From the IMG/VR virus record IMGVR_UViG_2562617057_000007: a DNA stretch of 60,252 nt. The stretch is one strand, 5' to 3'. Numbering within the stretch: the first letter of the stretch is position 1; the number at the start of each line of letters is the position of its first letter. The position numbers were made by a program, and so were the translations under genes. This document shows, in pieces, positions 4,548 through 32,404 of this stretch. The notes below the pieces were generated by a model. The model worked only from the letters and a program-made list of their open reading frames with translations. It had not been told where the DNA came from and did no database searches. The DNA is from a virus. Lineage: Duplodnaviria > Heunggongvirae > Uroviricota > Caudoviricetes.

Positions 4548-4563
4548 AGCGTTAACCTCGATA

Positions 4564-8297: not shown

Positions 8298-8300
8298 CCC

Positions 8301-8793: not shown

Positions 8794-8860
8794 AAAATAG
8801 TTGTGGAATTCCAAAAAGCCGATTAGCCTGATATCCGTTGAAAACAGTTCATCACGAAGA

Positions 8861-8884
8861 GGCTTCCGCAAGGGGGCCTTTTTT
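8861..8884 (+). terminator. rho-independent terminator
   Basis: GGCTTCC-GCAA-GGGGGCC hairpin (GNRA-type loop, two G-U pairs) followed by TTTTTT. Confidence 0.55.
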
Positions 8885-9221
8885 ATTGCCCCATTCTGGG
8901 GAAAAGTTAATAAAACAGGGCTTTCGCTGCGAAAAAACGCTATGCAGTTTTTGCCCTTTTTTATGCACCTTTTATTCACTCGAATTTCGTCATTCTGGAC
9001 CACTTAAGTTGATTAAATAGGCCTTTCATCGCAAATCTATTGCGAGCGGGGATCGTGTGGTTCCTATAATGTATATTATGTTAAATCATGTTGACTGTTA
9101 ACTTACTTCATGAACCAAGATGGTTCGCATAAAATCATAGGGTTAAGTCCCCCCTTAATCTTTCGTTTGCTGGCATTATGTTTAAGAGCTATTTTCTTCA
9201 TATCCATGAACTTCTCTGAGG

Positions 9222-10592
9222 ATGTCTCAGATGTATATACTCGACCAGTTGAGTGTTGCTCCAAACCGGCGGATTTGGACATTGGTTGACGCCACTACTA
9301 ACTTACCGCTTCTGTTTCCACTTCTCTTTCTCATTGATCGCTTGTCTTTACGTTCCGAATCCACGCAGTCATCTACGCTACAGGCTCTAAAATTTTTTTA
9401 TGAGTACTGGTATCAAAAACATGATGTTACTTTCTGTTTGAGCTTCCATCTGTCTGGATACAATCCTTCGATTGCAATTAGTGAGATTGAAGCATTTCTT
9501 CATTATCTTGAATCAGGAAAGCTTGTGTTGCCTACACTCGGACGCGCTGTAATTAGCAAGCACAATACAAATATTAATCATGTACATGCAGTCTGCCGTT
9601 TTATCAACTATCTGATCAATACTTACGTTTCTCCTCGTTATATGGATGGTACCCCAAAAGAACTTTCTCGTTACGCTTTACAATTATCCAGGCGTTTGTC
9701 GGCCTATCGTTCGGATTTTCGACCCAGCAAGCAAAAGCATTCAAACAAACATTTTAATAGCCTTACAGCAGACATGGTCAGGAAATTTTATGAGATTATT
9801 AGACCAGAATCGTCTTCCAAGCCAAATCCTATTAATCCCTTCCCTACTGGAGAAATTCAATTCAGAAATTATTTAATCTGTCGCCTTCTTTTGAATTATG
9901 GTTTGCGTGTAAGTGAATTGCTTTTGTTAGAAAAAAACTCAATTAAACCTAACATCAAGGGCGTACAGTTCAGTATCATAGTGACGTCTGTAGATGATGA
10001 TGTTAGAGATCCAAGAAAGAGATTACCGTCATTAAAAAACTCATGGGCGCATCGAGTTTTAGCGTTAGACATAAATGATTACAACCACTTAAAAACATAC
10101 ATTGATAAAATAAGGAAAAAAACCTCTCATAGTTTCATATTCACTTCAACTAAAAATAACACTCCACCACTATCGTATCACTCTATATATGATATTTTCT
10201 CAAAAATTGATTGTGCTTTCAAAAAAGAGTACCCGCAATTCAGTGATGAAGAAAGCATTGATTCTGTAGTTAGCATAACCCCACACGTAGCTCGCCATAC
10301 ATGGGCTTATTTGATCTTAAAGAGAGTCTATACTGATAAATATCAGTCTGTTATGAGAAGTTGCCAGCTTGCAGGAGTTGATTTCGCTATTGCAGGTCTG
10401 ATGAGTGAAGCCAAAGATGAGCTCCGTCTTTTAGGTGGATGGAGCCATAATAGCCGCATGCCAGAACTCTATGCCCGCCGTTTTCTTTCTGAGCGAGCTA
10501 ATTTTTCCAATCTCACGCGTATTGCTGCTGATGCCTCAGAAGATGATTTTTTTTCATCTATACATCAAGCGTTTAGGGAAACGACCAAGTGA
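9222..10592 (+). CDS. tyrosine recombinase-like protein 1
   Basis: 456 aa; GLRVSE (box I Arg), HVARHTWA, GGWSH, ELYARRF (catalytic Tyr). Confidence 0.8.
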   Translation: MSQMYILDQLSVAPNRRIWTLVDATTNLPLLFPLLFLIDRLSLRSESTQSSTLQALKFFYEYWYQKHDVTFCLSFHLSGYNPSIAISEIEAFLHYLESGKLVLPTLGRAVISKHNTNINHVHAVCRFINYLINTYVSPRYMDGTPKELSRYALQLSRRLSAYRSDFRPSKQKHSNKHFNSLTADMVRKFYEIIRPESSSKPNPINPFPTGEIQFRNYLICRLLLNYGLRVSELLLLEKNSIKPNIKGVQFSIIVTSVDDDVRDPRKRLPSLKNSWAHRVLALDINDYNHLKTYIDKIRKKTSHSFIFTSTKNNTPPLSYHSIYDIFSKIDCAFKKEYPQFSDEESIDSVVSITPHVARHTWAYLILKRVYTDKYQSVMRSCQLAGVDFAIAGLMSEAKDELRLLGGWSHNSRMPELYARRFLSERANFSNLTRIAADASEDDFFSSIHQAFRETTK

Positions 10593-12139
10593 ATAAAATC
10601 TTAGAGATAGAAAGCGAAGATAAGCATGTCTTTTTTTCACGTGAACAAATGATAAAAATAAAAAGTCTTTACATCCCTTCTAAAATACACTTGAGGTCAG
10701 CTGATGTTTTTGATGACAAGAATATATTTGCAGAGACTAATGATTGGGTGTTCCATTATTCAGGTAGCCAGTCACACATTAATTTCAAAACGGATGATTA
10801 CACCACAAAAATAATGAAGTATATATTATTCCATTATGCATCTTCAAAGTCTCCTGGGACTATATATCGTGTGCATCGTGCATGGATAGGCGCAATTGAA
10901 TATACTTCGAAACAAGGAATGTTTAACTTTCAATTGTTAAGATCTTTCCTTGAAAAGGAAAGTGTATTGCCCACACATTTTTTCTATATTATTTTTGGCC
11001 TTAAAATTCTTTGTATAGATGAATTTCCGGGTTTTACTTTAGATGACTACGAAGACCTTGAATTCATTCCTCGCCCTAATTCAAATGATTGGAGTGTATA
11101 TCAAAACATAGATAATATCTTTGAACCAGTTGAAAAGAACATGATCAGCAAAGGCCTTTTTGAAATGGCTACCGCCATATCACGAGGCAGAAATTACAAT
11201 CTGGTAGATCTTCGCAATGCCACTGTTTTGGGTCTATGTTACGTCACAGGTGGCCGTCCAGTTCAGTTAGCTAAATTGGCTGCTGGTGACTTTCGAATCG
11301 ATACTTGTAATACGACTACAGGGTTGGTTCGTTATAGCGTTCTTTTACCTTATGCTAAACAAAGGCACGTCACTACTGATCGGTTGATTCTGGCGCTCCC
11401 GCCGGAAATCGGTGTACTGGTTAACCATTATATAGATAAAGCAAGATTGTTGCCTACCGATAAGATGTTTGATATGGGGGCATCAGCAACTAAGTTTGTC
11501 TCTCAGTCTATTAGACAAACCATTCTAAACTTCAGCCCCCCTGATTATCAAGATGCCGTTGCTCGCGGAGAAGCCGCTCCCCCATCAATCACGCCAACTG
11601 ATTTACGCCACAACGTTGGTCACTCACTGGCTATGCAAGGAGTAAGTGCCGAAGAGATTGCTCACATTCTTGGTCATTCATCCTTAGTTGTAGCAAAGCA
11701 CTACATCTTGGCGACACCGGCCTTGGCCTTGATACGCGCTAAAGCACTAGGTTCTAACCCCGTGTGGCAAAACATGGTGGCTATGATGATGACAGGGAAG
11801 TTGGTCCCTTCAAAAGAATGGCAAGGTCGACGAGTAGTTGGCATGGTTGGTGATCGATTACACTATGAGATTGGTGGCTGTGCGAGAGGCGATGACGAAT
11901 GCCCTTTCTGTGAAGTCCGTTGCTGCTATGGTTGCTTATATTATCGCCCTTTCCTTGATGGCCAACACCAGGATGTACTAGATAGCATCTTGAAAGAAGT
12001 CGATGAGCTGATAGCTGTGTCAGATAGTGTAGGCAATGCTCACAATCCACTAATTTCTATCCACGAGACGACGCAAATAGAGATCAAGTCAGTGATTGCC
12101 CGTTGTCATTTGCATAACGTCAGAGGTTGTGGGAGATGA
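10589..12139 (+). CDS. tyrosine recombinase-like protein 2
   Basis: 516 aa; GGRPVQ, DLRHNVGHSLA, HILGHSS, KHYI; GTG start overlapping stop of upstream gene. Confidence 0.8.
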   Translation: MNKILEIESEDKHVFFSREQMIKIKSLYIPSKIHLRSADVFDDKNIFAETNDWVFHYSGSQSHINFKTDDYTTKIMKYILFHYASSKSPGTIYRVHRAWIGAIEYTSKQGMFNFQLLRSFLEKESVLPTHFFYIIFGLKILCIDEFPGFTLDDYEDLEFIPRPNSNDWSVYQNIDNIFEPVEKNMISKGLFEMATAISRGRNYNLVDLRNATVLGLCYVTGGRPVQLAKLAAGDFRIDTCNTTTGLVRYSVLLPYAKQRHVTTDRLILALPPEIGVLVNHYIDKARLLPTDKMFDMGASATKFVSQSIRQTILNFSPPDYQDAVARGEAAPPSITPTDLRHNVGHSLAMQGVSAEEIAHILGHSSLVVAKHYILATPALALIRAKALGSNPVWQNMVAMMMTGKLVPSKEWQGRRVVGMVGDRLHYEIGGCARGDDECPFCEVRCCYGCLYYRPFLDGQHQDVLDSILKEVDELIAVSDSVGNAHNPLISIHETTQIEIKSVIARCHLHNVRGCGR

Positions 12140-14498
12140 AAAAAATATAGAGAATTTTGACACTTTTATCGTAGAACAGAAAGCTTGGTTCGAAGAGAAT
12201 CTGGCAGCAGATTTTGCAGAATCATGGGATAGCCTTGTCTGGATATGTGGGAAAAAAGGTTCCGGCTGGTTACGAGGCAATGGTGTTAATGTATTGCGAT
12301 TTGATGAGATTAACCGGCTAAAAGGAATCGATGAACACTATACTGTATCCGATACTTATCAGTTGTTTATGAAAGCCATGCTGGTACTCGTCTATCGAGG
12401 CAGAAATCGCAGCATCTCCCCTGCGGTTGCTATTGCAACTCTGATTATTTTGAAACGCTGGTACTGTGCGCTGATTAAATTAACCGGGCAGACTCATCCC
12501 ATCTATCTGGCTACAGATGTTGTTCGTAGTGCAATGGATACTATGAGTGCAGCATCCAAGCCAGGTGATCCTAACATAGCCAACTACAAGGGGCGTTGCG
12601 TTAAGATTCAAAAATTAGTAAATCATCATGCTTTCACATTGGTAACTCTACATTATGTGTCCGACGAAAATTACACTAACCGGACCAATTTGACCCAGAA
12701 AGCCCGGGAAACAATAGCCCTTAAACACAAGGACAGGCTCGATGATACAGTCACTGATGGTGAAGATGCACTTATTACAATTCGAGGATTCCTCAATATC
12801 GTGTCACTTATCCAGCGTGTAGAAAACGGCACTGAAAAGATAGCGCTCAATTGCCTTCTGCTACTCATCATCACGGGTTTTCGGTCCATTGAAGCATTCA
12901 ATCTCAGGCTGGATGCGTTGGTCAAACGAAAGATAGATAACGCTGATATCAGCAGACGTCTACGCGATAAAGGGTTGCCGGATTATTTTCTTGGCATTCG
13001 CTATGTTGGTGTTAAGGGAGCTGGTGAGCGAACACATTGGGTCGAACCCTTAGCTGTTCCTTTAGTTGAAAACATATTCAAATCGGTTAAGTCACTAACA
13101 TGTGAGTTACGAAAGCATCTCATAAACTTACGTTTAAAAGGATTTGCTGATTATTTACCGGAGGCGATCAGTGATATTGCAGGTGAACTTGTTGAACTTG
13201 ATGATATTGTAGAACACATAGCCCAATCCTCATCAGAGCTTCGGGGGCGTGCGGGATTACGTGATAAAGCATCAAAAGCGTTAGCGAAACGAGGCTGTAT
13301 TCCGACTGAAGTCATTCTTTTTCCAGGTAATGAAAAAAGGAAATATTATTCAAAATCAGACCTTAGTCTTTACCTTAAAAATGAATTTGGTGATAGCAGC
13401 GCAAATACTCCCTGTACTCACTCATGGGTAGAAAACGGCAAAAGATTTGAGATTATGTATGAGGATTTATTGTTCCTTTACCCCAAAGGGTCTATGACGT
13501 TAAAGAGAGCATTGGGGCTAAAAGCAACACCTTTACCACTGAGTAATGCTGGCGTAAACAAGTTTCTCGGTAACGTTGACGGCTATGCTTCAGTCTTCAG
13601 TAAATACAGGCTACTCGAAGATGACGGTCGTCCTACCCAGCTTCGCACTCATATTCCTCGTCACAATATAAACACTTTTCTCGCTATTGCTGAAATTTCA
13701 GACCACTTACAAGCCATGTTGATGGGGCGTGTTGATATTACTCAAAATAAACATTACCAGCATCTGGCTCTTAAGGAGCGCCGAAAGGCTGCTTCTCTTA
13801 TTCCGTTAGTTCCGATCATACAGGAGCAGACAACACCAATTACTATTGACGCTGATACACCGCTCGATGTGGTAAAACAAAGTGGTATGATGATATTTAG
13901 CAGTACGAAGAATCTGGAAACCAACATAAAGGCGAACCTACATACCTTCGATAATCGTGACGATGTTGCAGGATTCATTGAGGCGTCGTTAGACGATGGA
14001 TTATTCGAAGACATAGCCGCTGCGTTCGAAGATATTAGTAAAAATGAAGGGCCATCGCAAGCGACTGAAATGGTGCATAGGCACGCGGTGCTGCATCCAT
14101 TGAAATTGGGCTCCTGCATGAGAGACGTAAACTTGTGGGGATGCCCTTATCGAATGAAGTGTCAGGCATTGAAGCCCTGTGAGCATTTCACGTTAACAGG
14201 TCGTATTGATGAATACTCCACAATTGAAGCCAAAGGTCGTGCATTAAACGAGGCTACGTTTGCTTTTGAACAGTATACCGCGACCTTTCCGGGTAACCAG
14301 CTAATGCAGGGCAATATCGAAGAAAATCTAGCACAACTAGATGCCTTAACTAAGCAATTACGCAGCCGCTCAAACTCGCTGGAAGCAATCCCCTCTCAGG
14401 TGGTCCTGTCCGGAGAGATAAAAGTAGAAGGTGAAATTCGTACTCTGGCTCAACTATTTGCCCTCGAGTACCAAAAAATCAAACAAGGAGAAGACTGA
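12096..14498 (+). CDS. tyrosine recombinase-like protein 3 (large, 800 aa)
   Basis: TGFRSIE, IPRHNINTFLA, MGRVDITQNKHYQH motifs; start uncertain (ATG 12096 or GTG 12129). Confidence 0.75.
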   Translation: MPVVICITSEVVGDEKNIENFDTFIVEQKAWFEENLAADFAESWDSLVWICGKKGSGWLRGNGVNVLRFDEINRLKGIDEHYTVSDTYQLFMKAMLVLVYRGRNRSISPAVAIATLIILKRWYCALIKLTGQTHPIYLATDVVRSAMDTMSAASKPGDPNIANYKGRCVKIQKLVNHHAFTLVTLHYVSDENYTNRTNLTQKARETIALKHKDRLDDTVTDGEDALITIRGFLNIVSLIQRVENGTEKIALNCLLLLIITGFRSIEAFNLRLDALVKRKIDNADISRRLRDKGLPDYFLGIRYVGVKGAGERTHWVEPLAVPLVENIFKSVKSLTCELRKHLINLRLKGFADYLPEAISDIAGELVELDDIVEHIAQSSSELRGRAGLRDKASKALAKRGCIPTEVILFPGNEKRKYYSKSDLSLYLKNEFGDSSANTPCTHSWVENGKRFEIMYEDLLFLYPKGSMTLKRALGLKATPLPLSNAGVNKFLGNVDGYASVFSKYRLLEDDGRPTQLRTHIPRHNINTFLAIAEISDHLQAMLMGRVDITQNKHYQHLALKERRKAASLIPLVPIIQEQTTPITIDADTPLDVVKQSGMMIFSSTKNLETNIKANLHTFDNRDDVAGFIEASLDDGLFEDIAAAFEDISKNEGPSQATEMVHRHAVLHPLKLGSCMRDVNLWGCPYRMKCQALKPCEHFTLTGRIDEYSTIEAKGRALNEATFAFEQYTATFPGNQLMQGNIEENLAQLDALTKQLRSRSNSLEAIPSQVVLSGEIKVEGEIRTLAQLFALEYQKIKQGED

Positions 14499-14941
14499 TG
14501 CGGGGTAAAGAATTGGATACTCAGATTGAGCATGAGCTCCAGCTGATGTTGATTGAAGGGTTTGATAAATCGCCAATTTCAGCTAAAAGCTTACACGCCA
14601 GACTTAAGTCAAAAGGCATCATCAATGGCGGCTTAAGTACATTAAGTAGCATTGAACGAAAACGTCTTATTGCAGCCTATGTCGATCAACAGCTATCTCC
14701 CCTAAATCTTCGCCCCAAAGAAAAGCAGCAGTATGTGAATCGTAAGACCCGTCAGGCTTTGCTTGGTCGTAATCAGCAGCTTCAGGAAGAGAACAAAGAG
14801 CTGCGCGAACAGCTAGCACAGAATACCTTGTCATTAATTGAAATTGTCAAAGCGGTAAAAATCAATACGGTTATACCGGTAGAAAGCCTTCTTGCTCCGC
14901 ACTTGATCATGGAGCTACACGAAAGGAAAAAAAATCAATGA
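14498..14941 (+). CDS. small coiled-coil protein, fourth gene of recombinase operon
   Basis: 147 aa; ATG overlaps TGA of upstream gene (TGATG); heptad-like QQLQEENKELREQLAQN segment. Confidence 0.6.
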   Translation: MRGKELDTQIEHELQLMLIEGFDKSPISAKSLHARLKSKGIINGGLSTLSSIERKRLIAAYVDQQLSPLNLRPKEKQQYVNRKTRQALLGRNQQLQEENKELREQLAQNTLSLIEIVKAVKINTVIPVESLLAPHLIMELHERKKNQ

Positions 14942-14971
14942 TAGGTATAGCGCTATATTTGTACAACAAAG

Positions 14972-15166
14972 TCATGAATAAACGCCTTGCTCTATTCGAA
15001 AAATGAGCATGGCAACTTTCAATACCCCCTCTTCTGAGTCCATTATTTCAGAGGGCATTTTCCACTGTAATGCTCTGTTTGGTTCATTGCACCAGTTTAA
15101 TGCTGCACTTTCGTTACCTTCAAAAAGATCAATAGCCTTTTGTATAACATCATTTTTTGTCAGCAT
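14972..15166 (-). CDS. DUF2384-like antitoxin C-terminal domain (Xre/MbcA/ParS type)
   Basis: ends with ...ALQWKMPSEIMDSEEGVLKVAMLIFRIEQGVYS, matching the DUF2384 RIExGVY signature; overlaps upstream HTH ORF in a different frame. Confidence 0.6.
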   Translation of the reverse strand: MLTKNDVIQKAIDLFEGNESAALNWCNEPNRALQWKMPSEIMDSEEGVLKVAMLIFRIEQGVYS

Positions 15167-15482
15167 ATTTTACACCTGAAGACGTTTTTAGTGCTTCGAT
15201 AAGGTTACTTCGCTCTTCCTCTGTCATTCGGGAGATGAGTAATGCAAGTTCTGCTGTTGTCTGATCATCACAAAAAAAATAGTTCAACGGTACGTTTAAC
15301 TCTGCCGCCATTCGTCGAAGCGTATCAATATCGGGGACATGGCGTCCTTTCTCATAATGATTCATACGACTGCTAGCCGATGCGGGATCAAAGCCAACAA
15401 GGAGACCCAGAGAGCGCTGTGATAAACCCGCCCTGCATCTCGCTTCCTTAAGTCGTTCTGGTATTGGATTTTTTTCAGACAC
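15150..15482 (-). CDS. HTH XRE-family DNA-binding protein
   Basis: IPERLKEARCRAGLSQRSLGLLVGFDPASASSRMNHYEKGRHVPDIDTLRRMAAELNVPLNYFF is a canonical Cro/C1-type HTH. Confidence 0.7.
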   Translation of the reverse strand: MSEKNPIPERLKEARCRAGLSQRSLGLLVGFDPASASSRMNHYEKGRHVPDIDTLRRMAAELNVPLNYFFCDDQTTAELALLISRMTEEERSNLIEALKTSSGVKYADKK

Positions 15483-15869
15483 TGATTCATCTTCATTGGC
15501 CTCGAATGCTTAGATTGTCTAAGTATCTGTCATTGTTGTATACTTAGCAATCCTAAGTTAACAGCCTTGTTTTGTCATATGAATAGTCGAGTAACCAACC
15601 CTGAGTCGTACATATTTTCTGCAATCATCTTAATTGGCAAAGATAACTTCACCAGTAACGAAGTAGCAAAAATTCTTATCGAGCGATTTTCACTTCCGAA
15701 AAATTATTTAAAGGCAAAAGCTTTTGCTTATAACCAAATTCAATCCCTGGTTAGAAAAGGATTATTAAACAAAGTAAGAAAAACGTAACCGTCTCATTTA
15801 AACCGTCTTTCGCCTCCCTTTCCTGTTTCCGATACTAATGTCCATTTTCGCAGTAAAGGGACATTTAAG

Positions 15870-16511
15870 ATGAATGCACGAAAAGCGGTACTGGCAGACA
15901 ATCCGGAATTGATCCTGCGTGTGCTACAACTGAGATTTGACGAGTCACTGTCGTACCCGCGCATTTCTGCGCAGACCGGTATCAGCAAAACCGCCATTTT
16001 TTCTCTGGTGAGGCGATTTCACCAGGTATTCACTGACTGGCCTCTTTCCGGGGAATATTCCTGCGTGCAACTGGCCCGGGCTTTGTTCCCGGGGCGATAC
16101 CCTTCAGCCCCGACAGTAACTCAGACTGTGAAAACAGAGAAAAACCGCCGGAACCGATTTTCACCGGAGTTTAAATGGAGACTTGTTCAGCAAACTCTTT
16201 TACCCGGTGCCTGTGTCGCACAAATAGCTCGTGAGAACGGAATCAACGATAACCTGCTCTTTAACTGGCGGCATCTCTGGCGTAACGGCGGCCTGCAGCC
16301 GACCGGCGAACATGAAACATCGCTACTTCCCGTGACGTTAACTCCGGAGCCGGATAATAAAATCCCGGCACCAGTGCAGATACCTGAACAGATGCCCGAC
16401 AGTCTGTGCTGTGAGCTGGTTCTGCCGGCCGGAACTCTCAGGCTGAAAGGTGAACTGACACCGGCGTTATTACAGACACTTATCCGCGAAATGAAAGGGA
16501 GCAGCCACTGA
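15870..16511 (+). CDS. IS66-family accessory protein OrfA (copy 1)
   Basis: 213 aa, identical to 20728..21369. Confidence 0.8.
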   Translation: MNARKAVLADNPELILRVLQLRFDESLSYPRISAQTGISKTAIFSLVRRFHQVFTDWPLSGEYSCVQLARALFPGRYPSAPTVTQTVKTEKNRRNRFSPEFKWRLVQQTLLPGACVAQIARENGINDNLLFNWRHLWRNGGLQPTGEHETSLLPVTLTPEPDNKIPAPVQIPEQMPDSLCCELVLPAGTLRLKGELTPALLQTLIREMKGSSH

Positions 16512-16612
16512 TGTCAGCGCCAGTGATATAAGACGGTAATTCGCCATTTGGATTGTCCGCTCCACCCAACATGTTGTTTCCTTAAGGTTCTCACACCAGA
16601 AAGGACATCAAC

Positions 16613-18582
<1,970 letters not shown>

Positions 18583-18644
18583 CGAAAGTATTTAGCGGGC
18601 ATGAAAATGGCAAATAACGGTCAAACATCGTGGCGTTGACACTG

Positions 18645-18992
18645 ATGATATCTCTCCCTGCCGGTTCGCGTATCTGGCTGGTTGCCGGTATCACCGACAT
18701 GCGAAATGGTTTTAACGGCCTGGCATCAAAAGTTCAGAACGTCCTGAAGGATGACCCGTTCTCCGGGCATCTGTTCATCTTCCGCGGACGCCGGGGTGAC
18801 CAGATAAAAGTGTTGTGGGCTGACAGTGACGGACTGTGCCTCTTCACCAAACGCCTGGAGCGGGGCCGCTTCGTCTGGCCGGTTACCCGTGACGGCAAGG
18901 TGCACCTTACTCCGGCTCAGTTATCTATGCTTCTTGAAGGTATCAACTGGAAGCACCCGAAACGAACGGAACGCGCTGGCATCCGCATATAA
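18645..18992 (+). CDS. IS66-family OrfB (copy 1)
   Basis: MISLPAGSRIWLVAG..., identical to 21369..21716; separated from orfA by the IS21 insertion. Confidence 0.8.
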   Translation: MISLPAGSRIWLVAGITDMRNGFNGLASKVQNVLKDDPFSGHLFIFRGRRGDQIKVLWADSDGLCLFTKRLERGRFVWPVTRDGKVHLTPAQLSMLLEGINWKHPKRTERAGIRI

Positions 18993-19011
18993 CCCGTTGT
19001 AAAGTGAGGAT

Positions 19012-21369: not shown

Positions 21370-21716
21370 TGATATCTCTCCCTGCCGGTTCGCGTATCTG
21401 GCTGGTTGCCGGTATCACCGACATGCGAAATGGTTTTAACGGCCTGGCATCAAAAGTTCAGAACGTCCTGAAGGATGACCCGTTCTCCGGGCATCTGTTC
21501 ATCTTCCGCGGACGCCGGGGTGACCAGATAAAAGTGTTGTGGGCTGACAGTGACGGACTGTGCCTCTTCACCAAACGCCTGGAGCGGGGCCGCTTCGTCT
21601 GGCCGGTTACCCGTGACGGCAAGGTGCACCTTACTCCGGCTCAGTTATCTATGCTTCTTGAAGGTATCAACTGGAAGCACCCGAAACGAACGGAACGCGC
21701 TGGCATCCGCATATAA
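21369..21716 (+). CDS. IS66-family OrfB (copy 2)
   Basis: 115 aa. Confidence 0.8.
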   Translation: MISLPAGSRIWLVAGITDMRNGFNGLASKVQNVLKDDPFSGHLFIFRGRRGDQIKVLWADSDGLCLFTKRLERGRFVWPVTRDGKVHLTPAQLSMLLEGINWKHPKRTERAGIRI

Positions 21717-21735
21717 CCCGTTGTAAAGTGAGGAT

Positions 21736-23307
21736 ATGGACACCTCACTTGCTCATGAGAATGCCCGCCTGCGGGCACTGTTGCAGACGCAACAGGACAC
21801 CATCCGCCAGATGGCGAAATACAACCGCCTGCTCTCACAGCGGGTGGCGGCTTATGCTTCCGAAATCAACCGGCTGAAGGCGCTGGTTGCGAAACTGCAG
21901 CGCATGCAGTTCGGTAAAAGCTCAGAAAAACTTCGCGCTAAAACCGAACGACAGATACAGGAAGCACAGGAGCGAATCAGCGCACTTCAGGAAGAAATGG
22001 CGGAAACGCTGGGTGAGCAATATGACCCGGTACTGCCATCCGCCCTGCGCCAGTCTTCAGCCCGTAAACCGTTACCGACCTCACTTCCCCGTGAAACCCG
22101 GGTCATCCGGCCGGAAGAGGAATGCTGTCCGGCCTGTGGTGGTGACCTCAGTCCTCTGGGGTGTGATGTGTCAGAGCAACTGGAGCTTATCAGCAGCGCT
22201 TTTAAGGTTATCGAAACACAACGTCCGAAACTGGCCTGTTGCCGGTGCGACCATATCGTGCAGGCACCAGTACCTTCAAAACCCATTGCACGCAGTTATG
22301 CCGGAGCGGGGCTTCTGGCTCATATCGTCACCGGGAAGTATGCAGACCATCTGCCGTTATACCGCCAGTCAGAAATATACCGTCGTCAGGGCGTGGAACT
22401 GAGCCGCGCCACGCTGGGGCGCTGGACCGGTGCCGTTGCTGAACTGCTGGAGCCGCTGTATGACGTGCTGCGCCAGTATGTACTGATGCCCGGTAAAGTC
22501 CATGCGGATGATATCCCCGTTCCGGTCCAGGAGCCGGGCAGTGGTAAAACAAGAACTGCCCGGCTGTGGGTCTATGTCCGTGATGACCGTAACGCCGGTT
22601 CACAGATGCCCCCGGCGGTCTGGTTCGCGTACAGCCCGGACCGGAAAGGTATCCATCCACAAAATCACCTGGCCGGTTACAGCGGTGTGCTTCAGGCCGA
22701 TGCTTACGGTGGTTACCGGGTGTTATACGAATCCGGCAGAATAACGGAAGCCGCGTGTATGGCTCATGCCCGGAGAAAAATCCACGATGTGCATGCAAGA
22801 GTGCCCACCGACATCACCACGGAAGCCCTGCAGCGTATCGGTGAACTGTATGCCATCGAGGCAGAGGTCCGGGGCTGTTCAGCAGAACAGCGTCTGGCGG
22901 CAAGAAAAGCCAGAGCCGCGCCACTGATGCAGTCACTGTATGACTGGATACAGCAACAGATGAAAACACTGTCGCGTCACTCGGATACGGCAAAAGCGTT
23001 CGCATACCTGCTGAAACAGTGGGATGCACTGAACGTGTACTGCAGTAATGGCTGGGTGGAAATCGACAACAACATTGCAGAGAACGCCTTACGGGGAGTG
23101 GCCGTAGGCCGGAAAAACTGGCTCTTCGCGGGTTCTGACAGCGGTGGTGAACATGCTGCGGTGTTGTACTCGCTGATCGGCACATGCCGTCTGAACAATG
23201 TGGAGCCAGAAAAGTGGCTGCGTTACGTCATTGAACATATCCAGGACTGGCCGGCAAACCGGGTACGCGATCTGTTGCCCTGGAAAGTTGATCTGAGCTC
23301 TCAGTAA
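21736..23307 (+). CDS. IS66-family transposase OrfC (copy 2)
   Basis: 523 aa. Confidence 0.85.
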
Positions 23308-23713
23308 ATATCAATACGGTTCTGGCGAGCCGCTTACATTTATACTCAGTCACATCAGAATTTAATATCGCAACAGAATGCGTGGAATTAATTGAGGCAA
23401 CCCCAAAGTCTTCCTGTCAACTTGTTTCAAGTGCTACCAACCATGAACACAGAAATGTAAATATCCAAATAAAGTCTCTTATTGAAAAATACAGCAGTGA
23501 GTTGGCGAAAGTATCAGGAGCAAAGGAGATTTATGAAGAATTGATAGTTGCTGTGCCGAGCAGGGAAAATGAATTCAGGAAGCTTTCTCTTGAACAAGAG
23601 AAAAAACACATCAAGATAAATGAAAAAATAAATACATTAATTGGAATTATTAATCAATCTCTTGCAGTAACGCAATGAATTTTAACAAGTATTTGAAGAT
23701 AAATGGAGTCATG

Positions 23714-23746
23714 AAAAAGAGAGGGCAAAGCCGAGCCCGCCCTCTC
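23714..23746 (-). terminator. candidate rho-independent terminator for the hsd operon
   Basis: on minus strand, GAGAGGGC...GCCCTCTC stem (8 bp, 12 nt loop) followed by TTTTT. Confidence 0.4.
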
Positions 23747-23986
23747 CCTTCATGCACTGACAAGCCTCATTAAAATGAGATTAACAGCGACACCCCTATA
23801 TGCTAGACGTATATAAATATAATGTCAGCCAGTCCCGGATGCAACTCCTTAATGAAGTTCAGTACTCTCTGTTTATTAGTTACCGAAATGATAGTTGGTT
23901 ATAGGTTTGTAAAATTCCGCTCGGGATGAAGCAAAGCAAACATTCGGTAAAGGGCTTTTTTATTATCGGTGACCCGTCCTGAATAA

Positions 23987-24742
23987 CTACATATCAGCCA
24001 ACAGCATCCCGGCTATCCCGTCCAGGCGTTTTTTTACCTTTTCCCAACCCGGCATAACCTGCCCCATCAGCCGGTAAAATTTCTCGCTGTGATTGTGCTC
24101 AGCGACATGGCATAACTCATGGAGCAATACATAGTCGATGCATTCCGAGGAAGCCTTTACCAGCCACGGGTTAAGTGTCAGGCAGCCTTTTGCAGAACAG
24201 TTTCCCCATTGCGTCTGCATGGCTCGTAAACGTATCGGAGGACGCTCACTTACCCATAAGGTTTGCGGTATCAGTAAATCCAGTCTGCGTTGAAACACAT
24301 CTCTGGCGCGTTCCCGATACCACTCAACCAGCACCGCCTTAACGCGTTCAGCGGATTTGTGTCTGACGGTGACTTCCAGACGGCCCCGCAACATTTTCAC
24401 TTTTTGCGTAACAGCAGCATCTTCTGTTACTTTCAACTGGTATTGTTTGCCAAGATAGTAATGGCTTTCGCCACTCACATACTGACGCGGAACGATATGC
24501 GTTTGTTGCTCCCTGAAGTCGCGTAGTTGCTGGTATATCCAGCGCCCTCGCTTTTTCAGCGCAGATATCACATCCAGCTCCGGCGTTCCGGGTGGTACAG
24601 ATGCGACTACCCGGCAGTCCGGATGAACCTTGATAAGTATCCTGCCTTTAACAACCTGCCGTGGTACACACTGAACCACGATGGTTTCATCACCATAAAC
24701 AAAACGTACAGCATTCATAGATAGTGACTTTTTCTCACTCAT
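23987..24742 (-). CDS. M48/DUF45-type zinc metallopeptidase (YgjP-like)
   Basis: 251 aa with HELCH zinc-binding motif; start overlaps hsdR stop by 4 nt. Confidence 0.75.
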   Translation of the reverse strand: MSEKKSLSMNAVRFVYGDETIVVQCVPRQVVKGRILIKVHPDCRVVASVPPGTPELDVISALKKRGRWIYQQLRDFREQQTHIVPRQYVSGESHYYLGKQYQLKVTEDAAVTQKVKMLRGRLEVTVRHKSAERVKAVLVEWYRERARDVFQRRLDLLIPQTLWVSERPPIRLRAMQTQWGNCSAKGCLTLNPWLVKASSECIDYVLLHELCHVAEHNHSEKFYRLMGQVMPGWEKVKKRLDGIAGMLLADM

Positions 24743-27700
24743 GATTTCATCAAACCAACGCGCAGGATCTGTATGATGGTTTCAACGATACGGTTTACCT
24801 GGTTCATTCCAGCACCGATCTCTCGACAGGCAGTAAACAGTCGCGGCAACAGGCTTGTCTTAACGGCTTTCTCGATATCCTGAGGATTGAGGGAATTTTC
24901 CGCAACCGCTTTGACAATAATAGTGTCCACTTCGAAAGCCAGCTTCGTCCATTTATGCTGAACCTGATCATCGTTTACCGCGAAAACCTCAGGTAGCTCT
25001 TTTTTAAATACTCCGTAGTATGCCTGCGCATGTTTGTTTACGGCCAGCGCATCCGGGATGTCGCTGAGTTTGCGGGCTTCCACCTGCGCCTCAAACTCGC
25101 GGAAAAGGAGATATTGCTTCAGCGGATGGTCGAACAGTTTTTCAGTCTCTTCAATAACCATACGCAGGAGTTTTGAGAATGCCTCCTGAGCATAGGGATC
25201 GTCGCACAGTTCATGTTCAATCATCTTCGTGACGCGGGTTTTAATGATGTCGGTCTCATTGCGGGTTTTGTTGTTATCCCACTCTTCCGGCTTTTCAGTT
25301 TTACCCATCTTGCCCACTTCATATACGCCATCCGGTTCACGAACCGCGACACCAGTAACATGCTTATTCAGCAGTTTTTTCACCTGTTCAGCGTAGTCGT
25401 CATAATTGACCTGCTCACCACTGACCTGCATCGCCCACTGGCGCAGGCTGGACATCTGTTTTACGGTTTCTTTATAGATATTTCGGTCTTGTTCCGTAAA
25501 GCTCTTGTCGGTGAAGAAGGTGGCGGACTGCAGCGCTACTTTCAGGCATCCGGCAAAGGCCGTTAACACCTCGAAGAAATCATCACGGGTTTTCTGATGG
25601 ATATCGACCATCTCTCCGTCACGTTCTTCCATTTTAGGCACCAGAACTGCACGTAACTGCTCAGTATCATTCTTGTTTTTAACACCGGCAAATATGGCCC
25701 ACAACTGGTTATACAGATGCGGCAGACGCTTGTATTCAGAGCTCATGGCGCTGTACAGCCCATCAATATCCTTGATGTCATATCCTCCCTGAGTTCGGGA
25801 GGCAAGATCCTGATATTTACCGATAGTCGTGTCCAGTTCAGCCAAAATGCCGCGATAATCAATCAGCAGACCAAACTTTTTCAGTGGATGCAGTCGGTTC
25901 ACCCGGGCAATCGCCTGGATAAGATTATGGGACTTAAGAGGTTTGTCGATATACAGCACGGTATTCTTCGGTTCATCAAACCCGGTGAGCAATTTATCAA
26001 CGACGATCAACAATTTAAGCTTATCATCGGTATCGAAGCGGCTAATGATATTACGGGTATACACAGACTCATCCTGCGTGCCGACATTATCCTTCCACCA
26101 TTTCGTCACTTCCGGCAGTTTGCTTTCATCCACCTCGGTGTTCCCTTCCCGGGTATCCGGCGGGCTGATAACGACAGCTGACTCAAACAACCCGGCTTCA
26201 TCAAGATACTTTTTATATTTGATGGCGGAAATCTTGCTGTCGCAGGCAAGTTGGCCTTTCAGCCCCTCATCAATATTCTTCGAGAAGTGCATGGCGATAT
26301 CTAATGCAATCAGCCGGATGCGGTCATCTGCACTATAAACCTCACCCTTACGGGCATATTTACGCTTAAGGTCGGCTTTTTGCGCTTCGCTTAACCCATC
26401 GGTAATACGATCAAACCATGCATCTATTGCCCGGTCGTTTACCTCAAGATCAGGAATACGTTCCTCGTAAAGCAGAGGCGTCACCGCCTGATCTTCTACC
26501 GCTCGCTGCATGGTATAAGCGTGGACAATCGGCCCGAATTTATTGGTGGTCTTATCTTCTTTCAGCAAAGGTGTACCGGTAAATGCCACAAAAGCAGCAT
26601 TCGGCAGGGCCAGTTTCATACGCACATGGTTTTCGCCACCCTGGCTGCGGTGTCCTTCATCAATCAGTACGATGATGTCGGGGCTGGTATTGACGCATTC
26701 AGGAAGTTTTGTCGCTGAATTAAATTTCTGGATCAGGGTGAAGATAATACGTTCTTTACCGGAGCCAATCTGTTCCGCCAACATCTGCCCGGATGTCGCC
26801 ATTGCATTGGCTTTGTCTTTTTTCCCGACCAACTCGCCGCCGGAAGCAAAGGTACCGCTGAGCTGTTCTTCAAGATCGATACGGTCCGTCACCACCACAA
26901 TACGACACTGCTTCAGGCTGTCATGAAGAATCAGCGCCTTACTGAGGAACACCATGGTATAAGATTTACCGGAACCCGTGGTATGCCAGATGACACCACC
27001 TTCCCTGCCGCCGTCTGATCTACGGGTACTGATGCGTTCCAGTAGTCTTTTAATGCCGAACACCTGCTGATAGCGGGCGACAATCTTCCCGGTCTTTTTA
27101 TCAAACAGGGTGAAAAAGCGCGTCATCTCCAGCAGACGTTCCGGCGAAAGCAGACTGATGAGCAGTTTGTCCTGTCCACTAACGGCCAGTTCACCCCCGG
27201 CGATTAACTGCTGATACCAGTTGAGATCGGCTGACGGACGATGATCAAATAACGCATGAATCTGTTCAGTCGATAACGGATGGTTGCGCAGAGCATACAT
27301 CTGCGCATCCGTAATATCTTCTTCCCGCCATGCCGCCCAGAATTTCATTGGCGTATGGCAGGTACCGTAGCGACCGTCATGCCCGTTAATCGAAAGCAAT
27401 AGCTGGCTATAGGCAAACAGCTGCGGGATTTCATCGTTGAACTGGTTGCGGATACTCTGAGATATCCCTTCGTCAATGGTTGGCCCTTTCTTACCGTGAC
27501 CTGCCGGGCTTTTCGCTTCAATGACTGCCAGCGGGATACCATTCACAAAGCAGACAATATCCGGTCTGCGGGTTTCGACACCGCCTGACCGCAATACCGT
27601 AAATTCTTCGGTAAAGTGAAACTGGTTATTTTCCGGATGTTCCCAGTCAATCAGCGCAATGGTGGGGTTCACCTTCTTGCCATCGACAAACTCCGTGACG

Positions 27701-28026
27701 GCGATACCGTAGAGCAGATGGTTATACATCCGCTCATTGGCTTTCAGCAGTCCTTCATTCAGCGCCGGAGAACAGACCTGCGATATCAGGTTATCCAGCG
27801 CCTTTTCCGATAACTGGCAGATTTTGCCACCCGCCATAAAGGAACGCTTCGAAAGCTCTTCACGCAGAACCGGACGCAGCACCACCTCATCCTGTTTATA
27901 GCCCCGGTAATCCATAATCTGTTTCGGGGATAAAAACGTCCAGCCGAGGCTGGTCAGTAACGTCAGTGCCGGAATTTTGGCGCTGTATTCTTCCTGGAAT
28001 TTTGGCGTGTACGTCTGGTTCATCAT
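24739..28026 (-). CDS. hsdR: Type I restriction enzyme R subunit
   Basis: 1095 aa; Walker A TGSGKS, DEGHR (DEAH-box) motif, size typical of HsdR. Confidence 0.9.
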   Translation of the reverse strand: MMNQTYTPKFQEEYSAKIPALTLLTSLGWTFLSPKQIMDYRGYKQDEVVLRPVLREELSKRSFMAGGKICQLSEKALDNLISQVCSPALNEGLLKANERMYNHLLYGIAVTEFVDGKKVNPTIALIDWEHPENNQFHFTEEFTVLRSGGVETRRPDIVCFVNGIPLAVIEAKSPAGHGKKGPTIDEGISQSIRNQFNDEIPQLFAYSQLLLSINGHDGRYGTCHTPMKFWAAWREEDITDAQMYALRNHPLSTEQIHALFDHRPSADLNWYQQLIAGGELAVSGQDKLLISLLSPERLLEMTRFFTLFDKKTGKIVARYQQVFGIKRLLERISTRRSDGGREGGVIWHTTGSGKSYTMVFLSKALILHDSLKQCRIVVVTDRIDLEEQLSGTFASGGELVGKKDKANAMATSGQMLAEQIGSGKERIIFTLIQKFNSATKLPECVNTSPDIIVLIDEGHRSQGGENHVRMKLALPNAAFVAFTGTPLLKEDKTTNKFGPIVHAYTMQRAVEDQAVTPLLYEERIPDLEVNDRAIDAWFDRITDGLSEAQKADLKRKYARKGEVYSADDRIRLIALDIAMHFSKNIDEGLKGQLACDSKISAIKYKKYLDEAGLFESAVVISPPDTREGNTEVDESKLPEVTKWWKDNVGTQDESVYTRNIISRFDTDDKLKLLIVVDKLLTGFDEPKNTVLYIDKPLKSHNLIQAIARVNRLHPLKKFGLLIDYRGILAELDTTIGKYQDLASRTQGGYDIKDIDGLYSAMSSEYKRLPHLYNQLWAIFAGVKNKNDTEQLRAVLVPKMEERDGEMVDIHQKTRDDFFEVLTAFAGCLKVALQSATFFTDKSFTEQDRNIYKETVKQMSSLRQWAMQVSGEQVNYDDYAEQVKKLLNKHVTGVAVREPDGVYEVGKMGKTEKPEEWDNNKTRNETDIIKTRVTKMIEHELCDDPYAQEAFSKLLRMVIEETEKLFDHPLKQYLLFREFEAQVEARKLSDIPDALAVNKHAQAYYGVFKKELPEVFAVNDDQVQHKWTKLAFEVDTIIVKAVAENSLNPQDIEKAVKTSLLPRLFTACREIGAGMNQVNRIVETIIQILRVGLMKS

Positions 28027-28075
28027 TAATCCTTTTCTTTCTGGCGCTACTCGCTACTGGTCACATGAAGATTCA

Positions 28076-28759
28076 TCAATGCAGACAGCACTTCTTAAAT
28101 TTTTTACCGCTGCCACACGGACACGGGTCATTTCGCCCGGGCATGTTTTCTGCCCTCTTCACTGGAACAGGCCGGGATGATGCCTCTGACATTCTCACTG
28201 ACAACCAGTACTGATAAAGTGCCAGTGCAGCAGGCTGAATAAGGGAAATACTTTTCTCAAACTGCTCTCCGGTCATTTTCTCAAGTACAGGAAAATTCTT
28301 CTCCACGCCATGAAGAGCGATCACTTCCAGAGAAGGCCGTAACTCACCGGGAAGACCAGACCAGTCATCCAGTGACTTTCCTTTCATATAACCAAAACAC
28401 CACTCTTCCACAATGGTATATTTTTCCCCCTTTACCTCACGCTCATTGAAAATCGGCTCAAACAGTTCAGGGGCGTCATAAAGGCAACCAGCGATATCGT
28501 TCATATGCTGAAAACACAGACTGACAAAACGCTCCATCTCTCTCTCAGATGACCATTTCGGATGATAATCGCCTCTTCCCCAAATAGCACTCAGCCAGAT
28601 ATTGGGTGAAACCATATTTGGACCTGATAAAATCGCCGTCAGCAATCCATCCAGCTCAGAGAAACAGAGTACAGAATCATCCATTCCATACTTCATTAAT
28701 ATTTCTTCCAGCCAGTCGATTTCCCGGTCAGTCAGTGGACCGCTTTTCGTCAGTTTCAT
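28076..28759 (-). CDS. YecA-like (UPF0149) protein with C-terminal SEC-C zinc motif
   Basis: 227 aa; collinear similarity to E. coli YecA as recalled; terminal [24 protein letters not shown] motif; start overlaps hsdS stop (ATGA). Confidence 0.8.
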
Positions 28760-29940
28760 ACGGCAACCGCCTCATCCACTTTCACCCGACGTTTCCCGGT
28801 CAGCAGTTGCTGCATCAAGGCTTTCTTCTCGTTTTTCAGGCAGGCGAGTTTTTTCTCAAGTGTGGAGATTTCGGTGTCGGCAGCGGACAGAACGGCGGCA
28901 ATTTTTTGTTGTTCTTCAAAATTGGGCACTGATAATTTTAATGTCTTTATATCATCACTATTAATTGATTCAAATGTGCTACCTTGTGATAGGTAACACC
29001 ATTTTGGTTCAAACCAAAGAAACCATTGATAAAGAAATGATTGACTCATTTTTCTCTTGGATTTTATAGCCGATATACCACGCCCTATACATGCTTTATG
29101 TTGAGAAAGTGCAACAGTACCTACAGGTGCCCTGACACTTAGAAGAATATCTCCAGGAGTACATTCTTTCGTAATGTCAGACGTATAAACTCTGGGACAT
29201 GAAACTCGGCACTTTATATCGGCATTACCCTGTATTAATGGCAAACCTAAGCCATTATCGTTGTAGGCTTCGGATTTAGGTGATGATCCCATAATAATAT
29301 GTGCTACTTCAGACAAAGTGCACGTACACCACTCCCCACTAAACCTCACCCCATTCTCATCCAGCAACCGTTTCTTCCCGGTAAGCAATTGCTGAATCAG
29401 GGCTTTTTTCTGCTGCTGGCTGTTGGCGAGAAGCTTTTCCGTCACCGAAATCGCCTTATTCCAGGTTGACAGGATTTGGGATATTTTCTTTTGTTCAGCA
29501 ACAGGCGGGGTAAGCACAAATTGATTATCAATGTCTTTTTTTTGAACATGTAATAATGTTGATTTGAAACCATGAGCCTGCGCTTCAATTTTTTGAGTTA
29601 TATGCAATAAAGCTAAATACAGCCAGTGTTCATGAACATTTTCATTTGCAAATACCTTGTAGATATGCTGATTCAAAACACCTTTTGGCCCATTCCAAAT
29701 GAAAGGACCGAAGGATACACCTTTTGTACCTGCCCAAGAAAATAGTAACTGCCCTGGTTCAACTAACCATTTATCCTGAGGAACACCTGAAAAATAGTTA
29801 TAATTACCGCTTCCATTTAGATTTTGAATTCGAATGATAGGAAGACCTTTTGTATCCCACTCATGTGGCTTAAAACTATTACCATTTTGTAACTTACAGA
29901 TATCTGACACTTGGAGAAGCATCCACCCCTTAGGCACCAT
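28756..29940 (-). CDS. hsdS: Type I restriction-modification specificity subunit
   Basis: 394 aa with two variable halves separated by repeated conserved segment [14 protein letters not shown] / [14 protein letters not shown]. Confidence 0.85.
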
Positions 29941-31453
29941 AACCCAACTCCTTCAGATAACCCGCCATCTCCGTTTCCAGTTTCGCCAGTTCCACCTTCA
30001 ATTGCTCACGCTCAGAACGCACGGCCAGCAAATCAATCTCGTCTTCTTCTTCAAAAGTATCGACATAGCGCGGAATATTGAGGTTGTAATCGTTATCCTG
30101 AATCTCCTTCAGGCTGGCGAGATAGGCATATTTCTCGACGTTATCGCCTTCACGATAGGTGTTAACGATCTTCTGGATATTTTCTGCGCTGAGCTGGTTC
30201 TGGTTTTTGCCCGCCTTATATTCACGGCTGGCATCGATAAACAGCACCTTGTCATCCACTTTCTGCTTCTTAAAAATCAGAATCGCGGCCGGAATCCCCG
30301 TACCGTAGAACAGTTTTTCAGGCAAACCAATCACCGCATCCAGCAGATTTTCATCAATCAGTTTCTGGCGAATCTTACCTTCGCTGGAGCCACGGAACAG
30401 CACACCGTGTGGCACGACCACCCCCATACGACCCGTTCCCGGTTTCAGGGTTTCTATCATATGTGAGATAAAGGCGTAATCGCCTTTGGTCTTCGGCGGT
30501 ACACCACGACGGAAGCGACCAAACTTATCGTTCTCGGCCTCATCATGGCCCCACTTATCCAGACTAAACGGCGGGTTAGCGGTCACGATATCAAACAGCA
30601 TCAGATCGCCATTTTTATCGAGCAGCTTCGGGTTACGAATGGTATCGCCCCACTCGATTTTATGGTTGTCCTCGCCATGCAGGAACATGTTCATTTTCGC
30701 CAGCGACCACGTGGAGCCAATCGCTTCCTGACCGAACAAAGCATAGTTACGGCTGTCATGCCCGGATACAATCTTACGCCCGCACTTCATTAACAACGAA
30801 CCAGAACCACAGGCCGGATCGCAGATGGTATCACCCGGTTGTGGATCAAGTAGTTCAGCAATCAGGTCCGAGACTTCCGGCGGGGTATAAAATTCCCCGG
30901 CTTTCTGCCCACCGCTGGCGGCAAAGTTTTTAATCAGATATTCGTAGGCATTACCGATAACGTCCAGCGTACCTACACGGCTTGGCTTCAGGTTAAGATC
31001 TTCACCGGCAAAGTCTTCCAGCAGCTGACGCAGGATGGTGTTCTTCTGTTTTTCTTCACCCAAGCGGTCAGTGTTAAACGAAATATCCTGAAAGACGCTT
31101 TTCCCGGCATCTTTCAGTTTGGTGCCGTTGGCTTCTTCAATAGCGTGTAGTGCCTGATCAATACGCTCGCCGTTTCCCGGCTCATAGCGACGCTCGTAAA
31201 GAGTATAAAAGCTGGCACTTTTCGGCAGCACAAAACGCTCGTTAGCCATCATCGCTTCAATCAGCTCCGGCGCATCGCCATACTGTTCTTTGTATTCGTC
31301 ATAGTGATCCTGCCAGACATCCGAAATGTACTTGAGGAACAGCATGGTAAGGATAAAGTCTTTGTAAGTATCAGCACTGATGGTACCACGGAACGTATCG
31401 CACGCGGCCCACAGGGCTTTGTTGATCGTGTCCTGACTGATTTTGTCGTTCAT
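29930..31453 (-). CDS. hsdM: Type I restriction-modification N6-adenine methyltransferase subunit
   Basis: 507 aa; motif I DPACGSGSLL and motif IV NPPF (VTANPPFSLDKW). Confidence 0.9.
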   Translation of the reverse strand: MNDKISQDTINKALWAACDTFRGTISADTYKDFILTMLFLKYISDVWQDHYDEYKEQYGDAPELIEAMMANERFVLPKSASFYTLYERRYEPGNGERIDQALHAIEEANGTKLKDAGKSVFQDISFNTDRLGEEKQKNTILRQLLEDFAGEDLNLKPSRVGTLDVIGNAYEYLIKNFAASGGQKAGEFYTPPEVSDLIAELLDPQPGDTICDPACGSGSLLMKCGRKIVSGHDSRNYALFGQEAIGSTWSLAKMNMFLHGEDNHKIEWGDTIRNPKLLDKNGDLMLFDIVTANPPFSLDKWGHDEAENDKFGRFRRGVPPKTKGDYAFISHMIETLKPGTGRMGVVVPHGVLFRGSSEGKIRQKLIDENLLDAVIGLPEKLFYGTGIPAAILIFKKQKVDDKVLFIDASREYKAGKNQNQLSAENIQKIVNTYREGDNVEKYAYLASLKEIQDNDYNLNIPRYVDTFEEEDEIDLLAVRSEREQLKVELAKLETEMAGYLKELGYGA

Positions 31454-31936
31454 GAATCATCCTGGTATGAAGAAAACCATACGATGTGTTGTATTCATCG
31501 TAGAAAATTTGGTGCAGATAATACCTTAAGGTGCGTCTTCAGGCACGTCAAAGCCGCATCGTTCGAAGTGGATTTTTCCTGAGGGGAATAGGACTCTTTT
31601 TTCCCGTAATGTGGTGGACTGGTTGATGAAACAAACACTAACGCGCGGCTTGGTACTGGATTGACCTGCTCCCCGTGATATCAATACACCCTACCCCAGT
31701 GACGCTAAAACGCATTTTACAACCTTTTATTACATTGGGAATGGTCCAAGATTAAGCTGTCAGGAAATACTCATAAGAGGTGCATTTCCTGTTAGTTCAT
31801 GAAGTACTCTTGAAGTGATTTCATCTTTCTATTAAAAATATCTTTCAAAGCAATGAAATATGTACCATATGGTTTATGAACTGAACTCTTACACAACATA
31901 AGTTAAATAACCTTCTTTTTTAACAAATTTAACAAG

Positions 31937-32401: not shown

Positions 32402-32404
32402 TTC

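Follow-up and report, generated by a model that had tools for sequence, protein, structure and literature searches.

A probable GInt-type integrative island at a GTTAAAT core site within a decayed prophage at yfhL

The viral record IMGVR_UViG_2562617057_000007 (Caudoviricetes), analysed here over its whole length of 60,252 nucleotides and referred to as the window, holds a prophage interrupted by a 22,822-bp segment on the + strand (9087..31908, one core copy counted). The segment opens at its 5' end with a ginABCD-like operon of four co-oriented, abutting open reading frames (ORFs; 9222-14941), continues with cargo that begins directly after the ginD stop (14941) and spans 14942-31453, and closes with an AT-rich non-coding 3' end (31454..31901) that terminates in ...CACAACATAA. 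A 7-bp core copy, GTTAAAT, marks attL (9080..9086) and attR (31902..31908). We propose, with a probability of about 0.85, that 9087..31908 is a site-specific integrative island of the GInt type (Genomic Island with three Integrases), inserted at GTTAAAT in a prophage at yfhL, and that the loss of the phage gene Q was a separate event. In our classification it is a new member of an already known kind of element, at an unusual target, a prophage.

The limits of the island follow from comparison with related phages. Homology to every one of them ends at 9086 and restarts at about 31899-31902. Among sequenced phages, the nearest to the window are Escherichia phages vB_EcoM-683R1, 689R2, 611R5 and 606R2, and the best reference is the prophage at yfhL of E. 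coli O121 strain 201805972, which is 99.99% identical to window positions 1-8129, 100% to 8130-8491, 99.5% to 8507-9086 and 99.8% to 31899-32860. When 9020-9086 was joined to 31909-31975, the resulting 134-nt sequence was found uninterrupted, at 90-98% identity, in 138 of 5,426 genomes in the searchable collection, which comprises complete E. coli genomes and has Shigella genomes outside it; the intergenic site is uninterrupted also in phages 683R1 and 689R2. The island junctions rebuild this empty site exactly, with zero phage bases lost. Conversely, the occupied phage junction was found in no complete E. coli genome (5,426) and no IMG/VR contig, and an exact-pattern scan of viral contigs for it gave 0 matches. 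None of the relatives carries the same genes here as native content, which supports insertion. A first-pass annotation had described an inserted accessory island of roughly 23 kb at 8795-31935; the homology breaks and the 138 empty sites bear out the insertion, but its left edge lies 292 bp too far left, since 8795-9086 is phage DNA that the empty sites also contain in conserved form, and its right edge 27 bp too far right.

Two hairpins had been taken to bound the island, and both do fold like terminators, but the left one (8861-8884) belongs to native phage DNA rather than to an island border. It lies within a stem and U run at 8856-8889 (+) that is kept in the empty sites (-17.1 kcal/mol, z = -2.6), while the second (31934..31955, +; -10.9 kcal/mol, z = -3.7, likewise with a U run after the stem) stands between attB and the holin gene. 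A simple terminator scanner flagged just the second hairpin; folding supports both. The description of the segment as compositionally distinct proved partly true: the G+C content (GC) drops at the left edge from about 0.51 to 0.38, but it is heterogeneous inside, and at the right edge it is low just in the 455-bp 3' end (31454-31908, 0.393), so that the check for uniform composition across the boundaries had a mixed outcome. GC is 0.416 in the gin operon, 0.543 in the block of insertion sequences (IS), 0.43-0.50 in the restriction-modification (R-M) genes and 0.475 over the whole island (0.442 without IS), compared with 0.498 in the early and 0.524 in the late phage region.

The first two genes of the operon encode tyrosine recombinases. 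The ginA-like gene (9222..10592, +) matches Pfam Phage_integrase (3.5e-9) and, by BLASTP, Sakai ECs_3512 (8e-13); by reading of the sequence its product holds the motifs LRVSE, HVARH, GGWSH and ELYARR, and the RefSeq start of the copy in E. coli G3/10 is the position equivalent to 9231. The ginB-like gene (10589..12139, +; start in the G3/10 annotation corresponding to 10649) matches Phage_integrase (4.1e-7), ECs_3511 (BLASTP, 1e-3) and NCBIfam integrase_1 (3.8e-25, under the curated cutoff). The third, ginC-like gene (12135..14498, +; 787 aa counted from the native start position) encodes a protein with a recombinase fold. It had no match in Pfam or NCBIfam, a PDB sequence search with the single sequence found nothing, and a profile search returned a weak match to XerD box II (HxxRH...GR...Y, E = 1.2). 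Members of its family, which is widespread in Enterobacterales, Aeromonas and others, are annotated as hypothetical throughout; the family columns R250, H506, R509 and Y541 are invariant, although the model is poor over 508-572 and we do not claim catalytic competence. The last gene (14498..14941, +) encodes a small protein of 147 aa without a domain, assigned as ginD-like by position and size only, whose family is common in Pectobacterium, Aeromonas, Klebsiella and E. coli.

As reference for Gin homology we used Sakai ECs_3512-3509 (NC_002695.2) rather than the Pseudomonas type elements. ECs_3510 and ECs_3509 are entered as ginC and ginD orthologues in Additional file 10 of PMC10214605. The four ORFs of the island are colinear with ECs_3512-3509 and with the module of E. 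coli H1, and the third protein aligns with ECs_3510 by BLASTP (3.5e-10) and hhalign (97.2%, E 3e-11, 398 columns). The Sakai operon (3493997-3498544), a distant relative, itself lies inside a region annotated as 'prophage Sp17; lambda-like phage', and GInt-type modules in or beside prophage-like DNA may not be rare. Near the left junction of the island, the sole promoter-like match (9073-9101, -; TTAACA-17-TAATAT) spans the junction and points outward; it is a consensus match only. An outward promoter at the gin end has been reported for a Pseudomonas GInt (PMC5385486).

The attachment sites were compared with their empty counterparts. attL (TGTATATTATGTTAAAT) and attR (CACAACATAAGTTAAAT) are identical at 10/17 positions, including the perfect 7-bp GTTAAAT, of which empty sites hold one copy. 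Around this core, attL of the window has the left arm TTCCTATAATGTATATTAT and the right arm CATGTTGAC, and attR the left arm CACAACATAA and the right arm AACCTTC. The phage attB, as seen in the O121 prophage, has the left arm TTCCTATAACATACATTAT and the right arm AACCTTC, and the attB at hipA, as seen in K-12, has GCGCATAATGTATATTAT and CATGTCTGAG. The junction of the putative circle would read ...CACAACATAA-GTTAAAT-CATGTTGAC... and contain ACATAA-N6-TTATGT, a perfect inverted repeat.

The same island occurs at hipA. Just downstream of this gene, E. coli G3/10 and 730V1 carry a copy that is 99.9% identical once the IS block is set aside, and a gin-type attL at hipA is common to 21 complete E. 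coli genomes. The predicted hipA-side attR, composed of the island 3' end, GTTAAAT and the K-12 yneL-side flank, is present in 81 genomes; in K-12 the hipA site is empty. The region downstream of hipA appears to be the usual E. coli site of the element. The phage and hipA sites share ATAA-N6-TTATGTTAAAT, a pattern that makes the former a look-alike of the latter. attL of a Klebsiella grimontii copy also has ATAA-N6-TTATGTTAAAT, with a different N6; a scan of GTDB representatives for the island left end returned this species alone, on one contig. The right flank of the G3/10 copy is not the K-12 yneL side and continues with IS1 and a heat-resistance (trx-GI) region; the hipA site has thus gathered several islands.

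Both sites fit a reciprocal exchange at the 7-bp core. We also considered the 6-nt block within ATAA-N6-TTATGTTAAAT as the crossover region, but this predicts an attR 10 bp longer than is seen at the phage site and at hipA, and the GTTAAAT-core model was therefore kept. By analogy with the experiments in PMC5385486, a circle produced by exchange between attL and attR would integrate at attB through the Gin proteins. In the case of the window, the circular island would have recombined at GTTAAAT with the hipA-site look-alike in the Q-to-holin region. A cargo gene was later invaded by two IS66-family copies, one of which in turn took up an IS21-family element.

The resemblance to GInts, described by Bardaji et al. 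(2017, PMC5385486) and surveyed by Idola et al. (2023, PMC10214605), extends over the whole element. Their hallmarks are ginABCD, cargo and a short (0.2-0.4 kb), poorly conserved, AT-rich 3' end, and their flanks are imperfect direct repeats of about 10-17 nt that form attI/attB chimeras (PMC5385486). Escherichia is a reported host genus, GInts being present in 7.5% of replicons (PMC10214605). The island likewise combines two tyrosine recombinases, a larger recombinase-fold protein of the sort usually called 'hypothetical' and a small protein in the range of about 130-170 aa with cargo directly after the fourth gene, an AT-rich 3' end, imperfect direct repeats and high target specificity. Its cargo includes R-M genes, and the model GInt of P. 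stutzeri DSM 4166 has type I R-M as well. It differs in having its target within a prophage rather than at a chromosomal gene end, and in a GinC-like protein that keeps the box I R, HxxR and Y-like columns, whereas published GinC is described as lacking part or all of RHRY.

Several points weigh against this classification. Similarity between the ginD-like protein and the one orthologue compared, Sakai GinD orthologue ECs_3509, was not detectable. The accessions and records of the family were not matched in a portion of the published ginC/ginD list (PMC10214605), an outcome that is uninformative. Excision and the circular form are ones that we infer. Moreover, the native start of ginC has been lost in the window copy. 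The gin region differs from that of G3/10 by four substitutions and one A missing from an A8 run at 12138, just after the ginC ATG; this 1-nt deletion puts the native ATG (12133) out of frame, while an open frame through the body of the gene persists from TTG 12096 or GTG 12129. Pseudomonas GInts require each of the four gin genes (PMC5385486), and the window copy may for this reason be immobile, unless ginC is expressed from an alternative start. Finally, three attL bases (9070, 9071 and 9074) match the previous (hipA) site, a difference from known GInts that a plain exchange in GTTAAAT does not predict.

These three bases fall within the 6-nt block TGTATA of the attL left arm (9070..9075), which is the same as at the hipA site and has three substitutions compared with CATACA of the O121 empty site. 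For their origin we put at about even odds an explanation that is neutral as to mechanism, namely a polymorphism of the Shigella-lineage phage, or gene conversion with a copy at hipA as donor. The empty sites that were read differ in this block (CGTACA, CATACA and a 4-nt deletion; TCATTG in Klebsiella), and Shigella genomes were outside the collection searched. On the other hand, TGTATA occurs in 0/138 empty sites, and an empty phage site with this block gave 0 matches in an exact-pattern scan of viral contigs. In addition, 9070, 9071 and 9074 are the sole mismatches to the O121 prophage in 580 bp, and they create the identity with the hipA site. The 4-nt deletion, found in the empty site of E. 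coli UPEC 26-1, lies exactly within the 6-nt block. Small deletions in restored attB sites after GInt excision have been reported, and 6-nt overhang variants described (PMC5385486).

We regard it as rather doubtful, yet worth stating, that the element, on leaving a hipA-type donor site, took the TGTATA block along into the phage. If so, GInts would bring donor-site bases to new sites, leaving a footprint like that of Tn554 and SE elements but on the opposite side, and the variable 6-nt block in otherwise conserved empty sites would be the scar of repeated GInt visits. On a related point, no transfer route is known for GInts, and prophages may serve as occasional landing sites that could carry them between cells.

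The same bases bear on a further alternative, which we consider improbable: that the segment is an element of the SE or Tn554 type, or moved as these do, by copy-out with donor bases carried over instead of by reciprocal exchange. The general architecture, several tyrosine recombinases and a small protein, is shared, as are site-specific insertion, the absence of conjugation genes and short flanking blocks able to travel. The 6-nt block beside attL matches hipA instead of the phage target, which recalls the 6-bp footprint of SE/Tn554, and some GInts left no empty site (PMC5385486, PMC10214605). However, the gene order here is A, B, C, D with the two catalytic recombinases first, whereas the SE core runs intA, tfp, intB, srap with the non-catalytic Tfp second; the large protein of the island that lacks a Pfam match is third and is homologous to a listed GinC orthologue. 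Tn554 has tnpA, tnpB and tnpC without a third recombinase-fold gene, whereas the island has one of 787 aa. The donor bases of SEs land by the right end, not the left (PMC10214605), and the hipA junctions fit a plain exchange at the 7-bp core. SE and GInt proteins form separate clusters, and SE ends bear imperfect terminal inverted repeats of 13-19 bp with motifs C and C' (PMC10214605). By reading, the island ends show short inverted matches (TTATGTT / AACATAA and TCATGTT / AACATAA); a repeat search in which each end was scanned separately found no terminal inverted repeat pair, and none that was long. Recombinase-in-trio (RIT) elements resemble the island in their three adjacent tyrosine-recombinase genes; they are compact, with long inverted repeats at their borders, and are not known to have a fourth small gene or large cargo.

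Under the GInt-type classification, a hipA-site GInt would have landed in a secondary site in a prophage, where 22.8 kb now separate the lysis and structural genes from the Q/phiTE_015 region. GInts are without transfer genes, and transduction has been suggested for their spread (PMC5385486). Insertions in prophages are relevant to that question, although this copy is too large, and its prophage too damaged, for packaging. The comparison of the hipA, phage and Klebsiella att sites also provides a small natural data set on target recognition, with ATAA-N6-TTATGTTAAAT as the common pattern.

The first-pass annotation had further placed the island where a lambdoid phage would carry Q, and supposed that it had replaced or displaced prophage regulators on insertion. 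Q is indeed absent: tblastn with the Q proteins of four relatives gave a best E of 0.11 in the whole window, and the island does lie in the Q-to-lysis interval, which in lambdoid phages often holds extra genes. In relatives, however, the order is cro, a VapE/DUF5906 primase gene, in some cases a hypothetical gene, Q, in some cases a phiTE_015-family gene, a hairpin, about 200 bp, attB, a hairpin and holin, which puts Q upstream of the insertion point. The window lacks two stretches of this region. Relative to the O121 prophage, deletion 1 (junction 8129/8130) removed 8.56 kb with the N-terminal two thirds of the DNA polymerase gene, BRO-N, DUF2815, HNH and DUF2800 genes, a LexA-type repressor and the 5' end of cro, leaving the 3' part of a cro-like helix-turn-helix (HTH) gene (8130..8297, +). 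It is followed by the first 64 codons of the VapE/DUF5906 primase-like gene (8301..8491, +; tblastn, 97% over residues 1-64 of the 683R1 homologue), which end at deletion 2 (junction 8491/8507). At this junction lies a 15-bp filler (8492..8506) without a match, followed by a truncated phiTE_015-family gene (8507..8793, +; residues 18-113, 99% identical to WP_001174014). Deletion 2 extends from primase codon 65 through codon 17 of the phiTE_015-family gene and thereby eliminated a hypothetical gene and Q, together with what remained of the primase gene and the 17 initial codons of the gene that follows Q, about 3.9 kb compared with O121 (whose copy includes IS1) and about 2.8 kb compared with CB9615. 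An ORF at 8518-8793 was considered as a Q remnant, given that its 3' end aligns near Q of 683R1; the alignment reflects shared DNA downstream of Q, and the ORF is the truncated phiTE_015-family gene.

Between the deletion 2 junction and the island, 8507-9086 comprises 580 bp of intact phage sequence. With the Q deletion this far upstream and the island junctions free of loss, replacement or displacement of regulators by the island is unsupported, and we give it very little weight. As read from these junctions, Q, the primase gene, the repressor gene and most of the polymerase gene were lost in two internal deletions unrelated to the island. This prophage is a remnant that has decayed more than once, and the absence of its regulators is not due to the island; cargo insertion and regulator loss were separate events, and this is not a phage re-engineered by an island. 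A sigma-70 scan for a late promoter over the Q-to-holin interval of the window and of one empty site returned no + strand match; TTGCGA-19 bp-TATAAT, ending at 9070, was rejected as a promoter on account of its too long spacer. The gin operon is co-oriented with the phage late genes, and phage transcription could read into it. Read-in from outside has been observed in P. stutzeri (PMC5385486). Because Q is deleted, any effect of the island on late transcription is moot for this copy.

A reading of the segment as cargo native to the phage, in the manner of a moron region such as the stx genes that Stx phages carry in the same interval upstream of holin, agrees with its position between Q and the holin gene but earns almost no credence from us, as the island possesses a recombinase operon and core repeats of its own, is absent from 138/138 related E. 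coli prophage sites, and its module and cargo are also present outside phages, at hipA.

The gene content listed for the island in the first-pass annotation was recovered: two ORFs match Pfam Phage_integrase and a third has a recombinase fold, and there are also an HTH gene, elements of the IS66 and IS21 families, and hsdM, hsdS and hsdR. To these we add ginD, genes for an M48/YgjP-like peptidase and a YecA-like protein, and a hypothetical gene that the IS copies have split. The HTH gene, earlier termed antitoxin-like, encodes an HTH_3 regulator (15150..15482, -) that matches the PADLOC R-M 'control protein' model best (5.7e-26). The hypothetical gene (+, 186 aa) is in three pieces (15577-15784, 20614-20642 and 23338-23678), split by two IS66-family copies, and is unbroken in E. 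coli H1. IS66-family copy 1 (tnpA/B/C; 15785..20613, +) is flanked by a 7-bp duplication, GAAAAAC, and is interrupted by a 2,126-bp IS21-family element (16514..18639, +; istA 16613-17785, istB 17782-18582) with the 8-bp target duplication CACTGATG. IS66-family copy 2 (20643..23337, +), with the 8-bp target duplication ATTTATAC, is 100% identical to copy 1 and lies 29 bp from it.

The remainder of the cargo is on the - strand and comprises the M48/YgjP-like metallopeptidase gene (23987..24742), which overlaps the end of hsdR, the type I restriction subunit gene hsdR (24739..28026), the gene for a YecA-like protein (UPF0149 + SEC-C; 28076..28759) between hsdS and hsdR, the specificity subunit gene hsdS (28756..29940) and the methyltransferase gene hsdM (29930..31453). 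The YecA-like protein matches the PADLOC candidate model PDC-S12 (7e-99), and in many E. coli genomes its gene is found together with this R-M operon. The type I R-M system probably acts in host defence and as a stabilisation or addiction module of the island. Cargo varies among elements: the G3/10 copy is without the HTH and hypothetical genes, and H1 shares the R-M cargo with the window, while its gin module is only 31-41% identical at the protein level. At the hipA site of H1, cargo and 3' end are 100% identical to window positions 23338-31902, and the similarity stops at ...ACATAAG, without the TTAAAT of the core. The H1 pattern suggests module swapping, or tandem or nested elements.

Outside the island, the window opens with yfhL (1-261, minus strand), followed by the phage integrase gene (470-1873). 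No tRNA gene was found in the whole window, which argues against tRNA targeting. The early genes after the integrase encode an SNF2 helicase, Rha, Arc, DUF4406 and Ant proteins. The holin gene (32042..32401, +), the first lysis gene, begins 134 bp 3' of the insertion point, and from 32042 onward lysis, terminase, head and tail genes follow the organisation of a lambdoid-organised myovirus. Among the tail-fibre genes lies an IS2 copy (54402-55733; 99.6% identity to IS2 of the SfX record), and a truncated tail-fibre N-terminal domain picks up again at 55705. A serine recombinase gene with a resolvase N-terminal domain (59791-60252, +, running past the window end) adjoins the tail-fibre region and looks like a Pin/Gin-type DNA invertase gene. 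Just past the tail-fibre genes, in low-GC DNA, 57496-59322 (-) encodes a protein of 608 aa that combines a type III secretion LRR domain with an NEL E3-ligase domain at its C-terminus. It is an IpaH-type effector, a feature suggesting that the window comes from Shigella or enteroinvasive E. coli.

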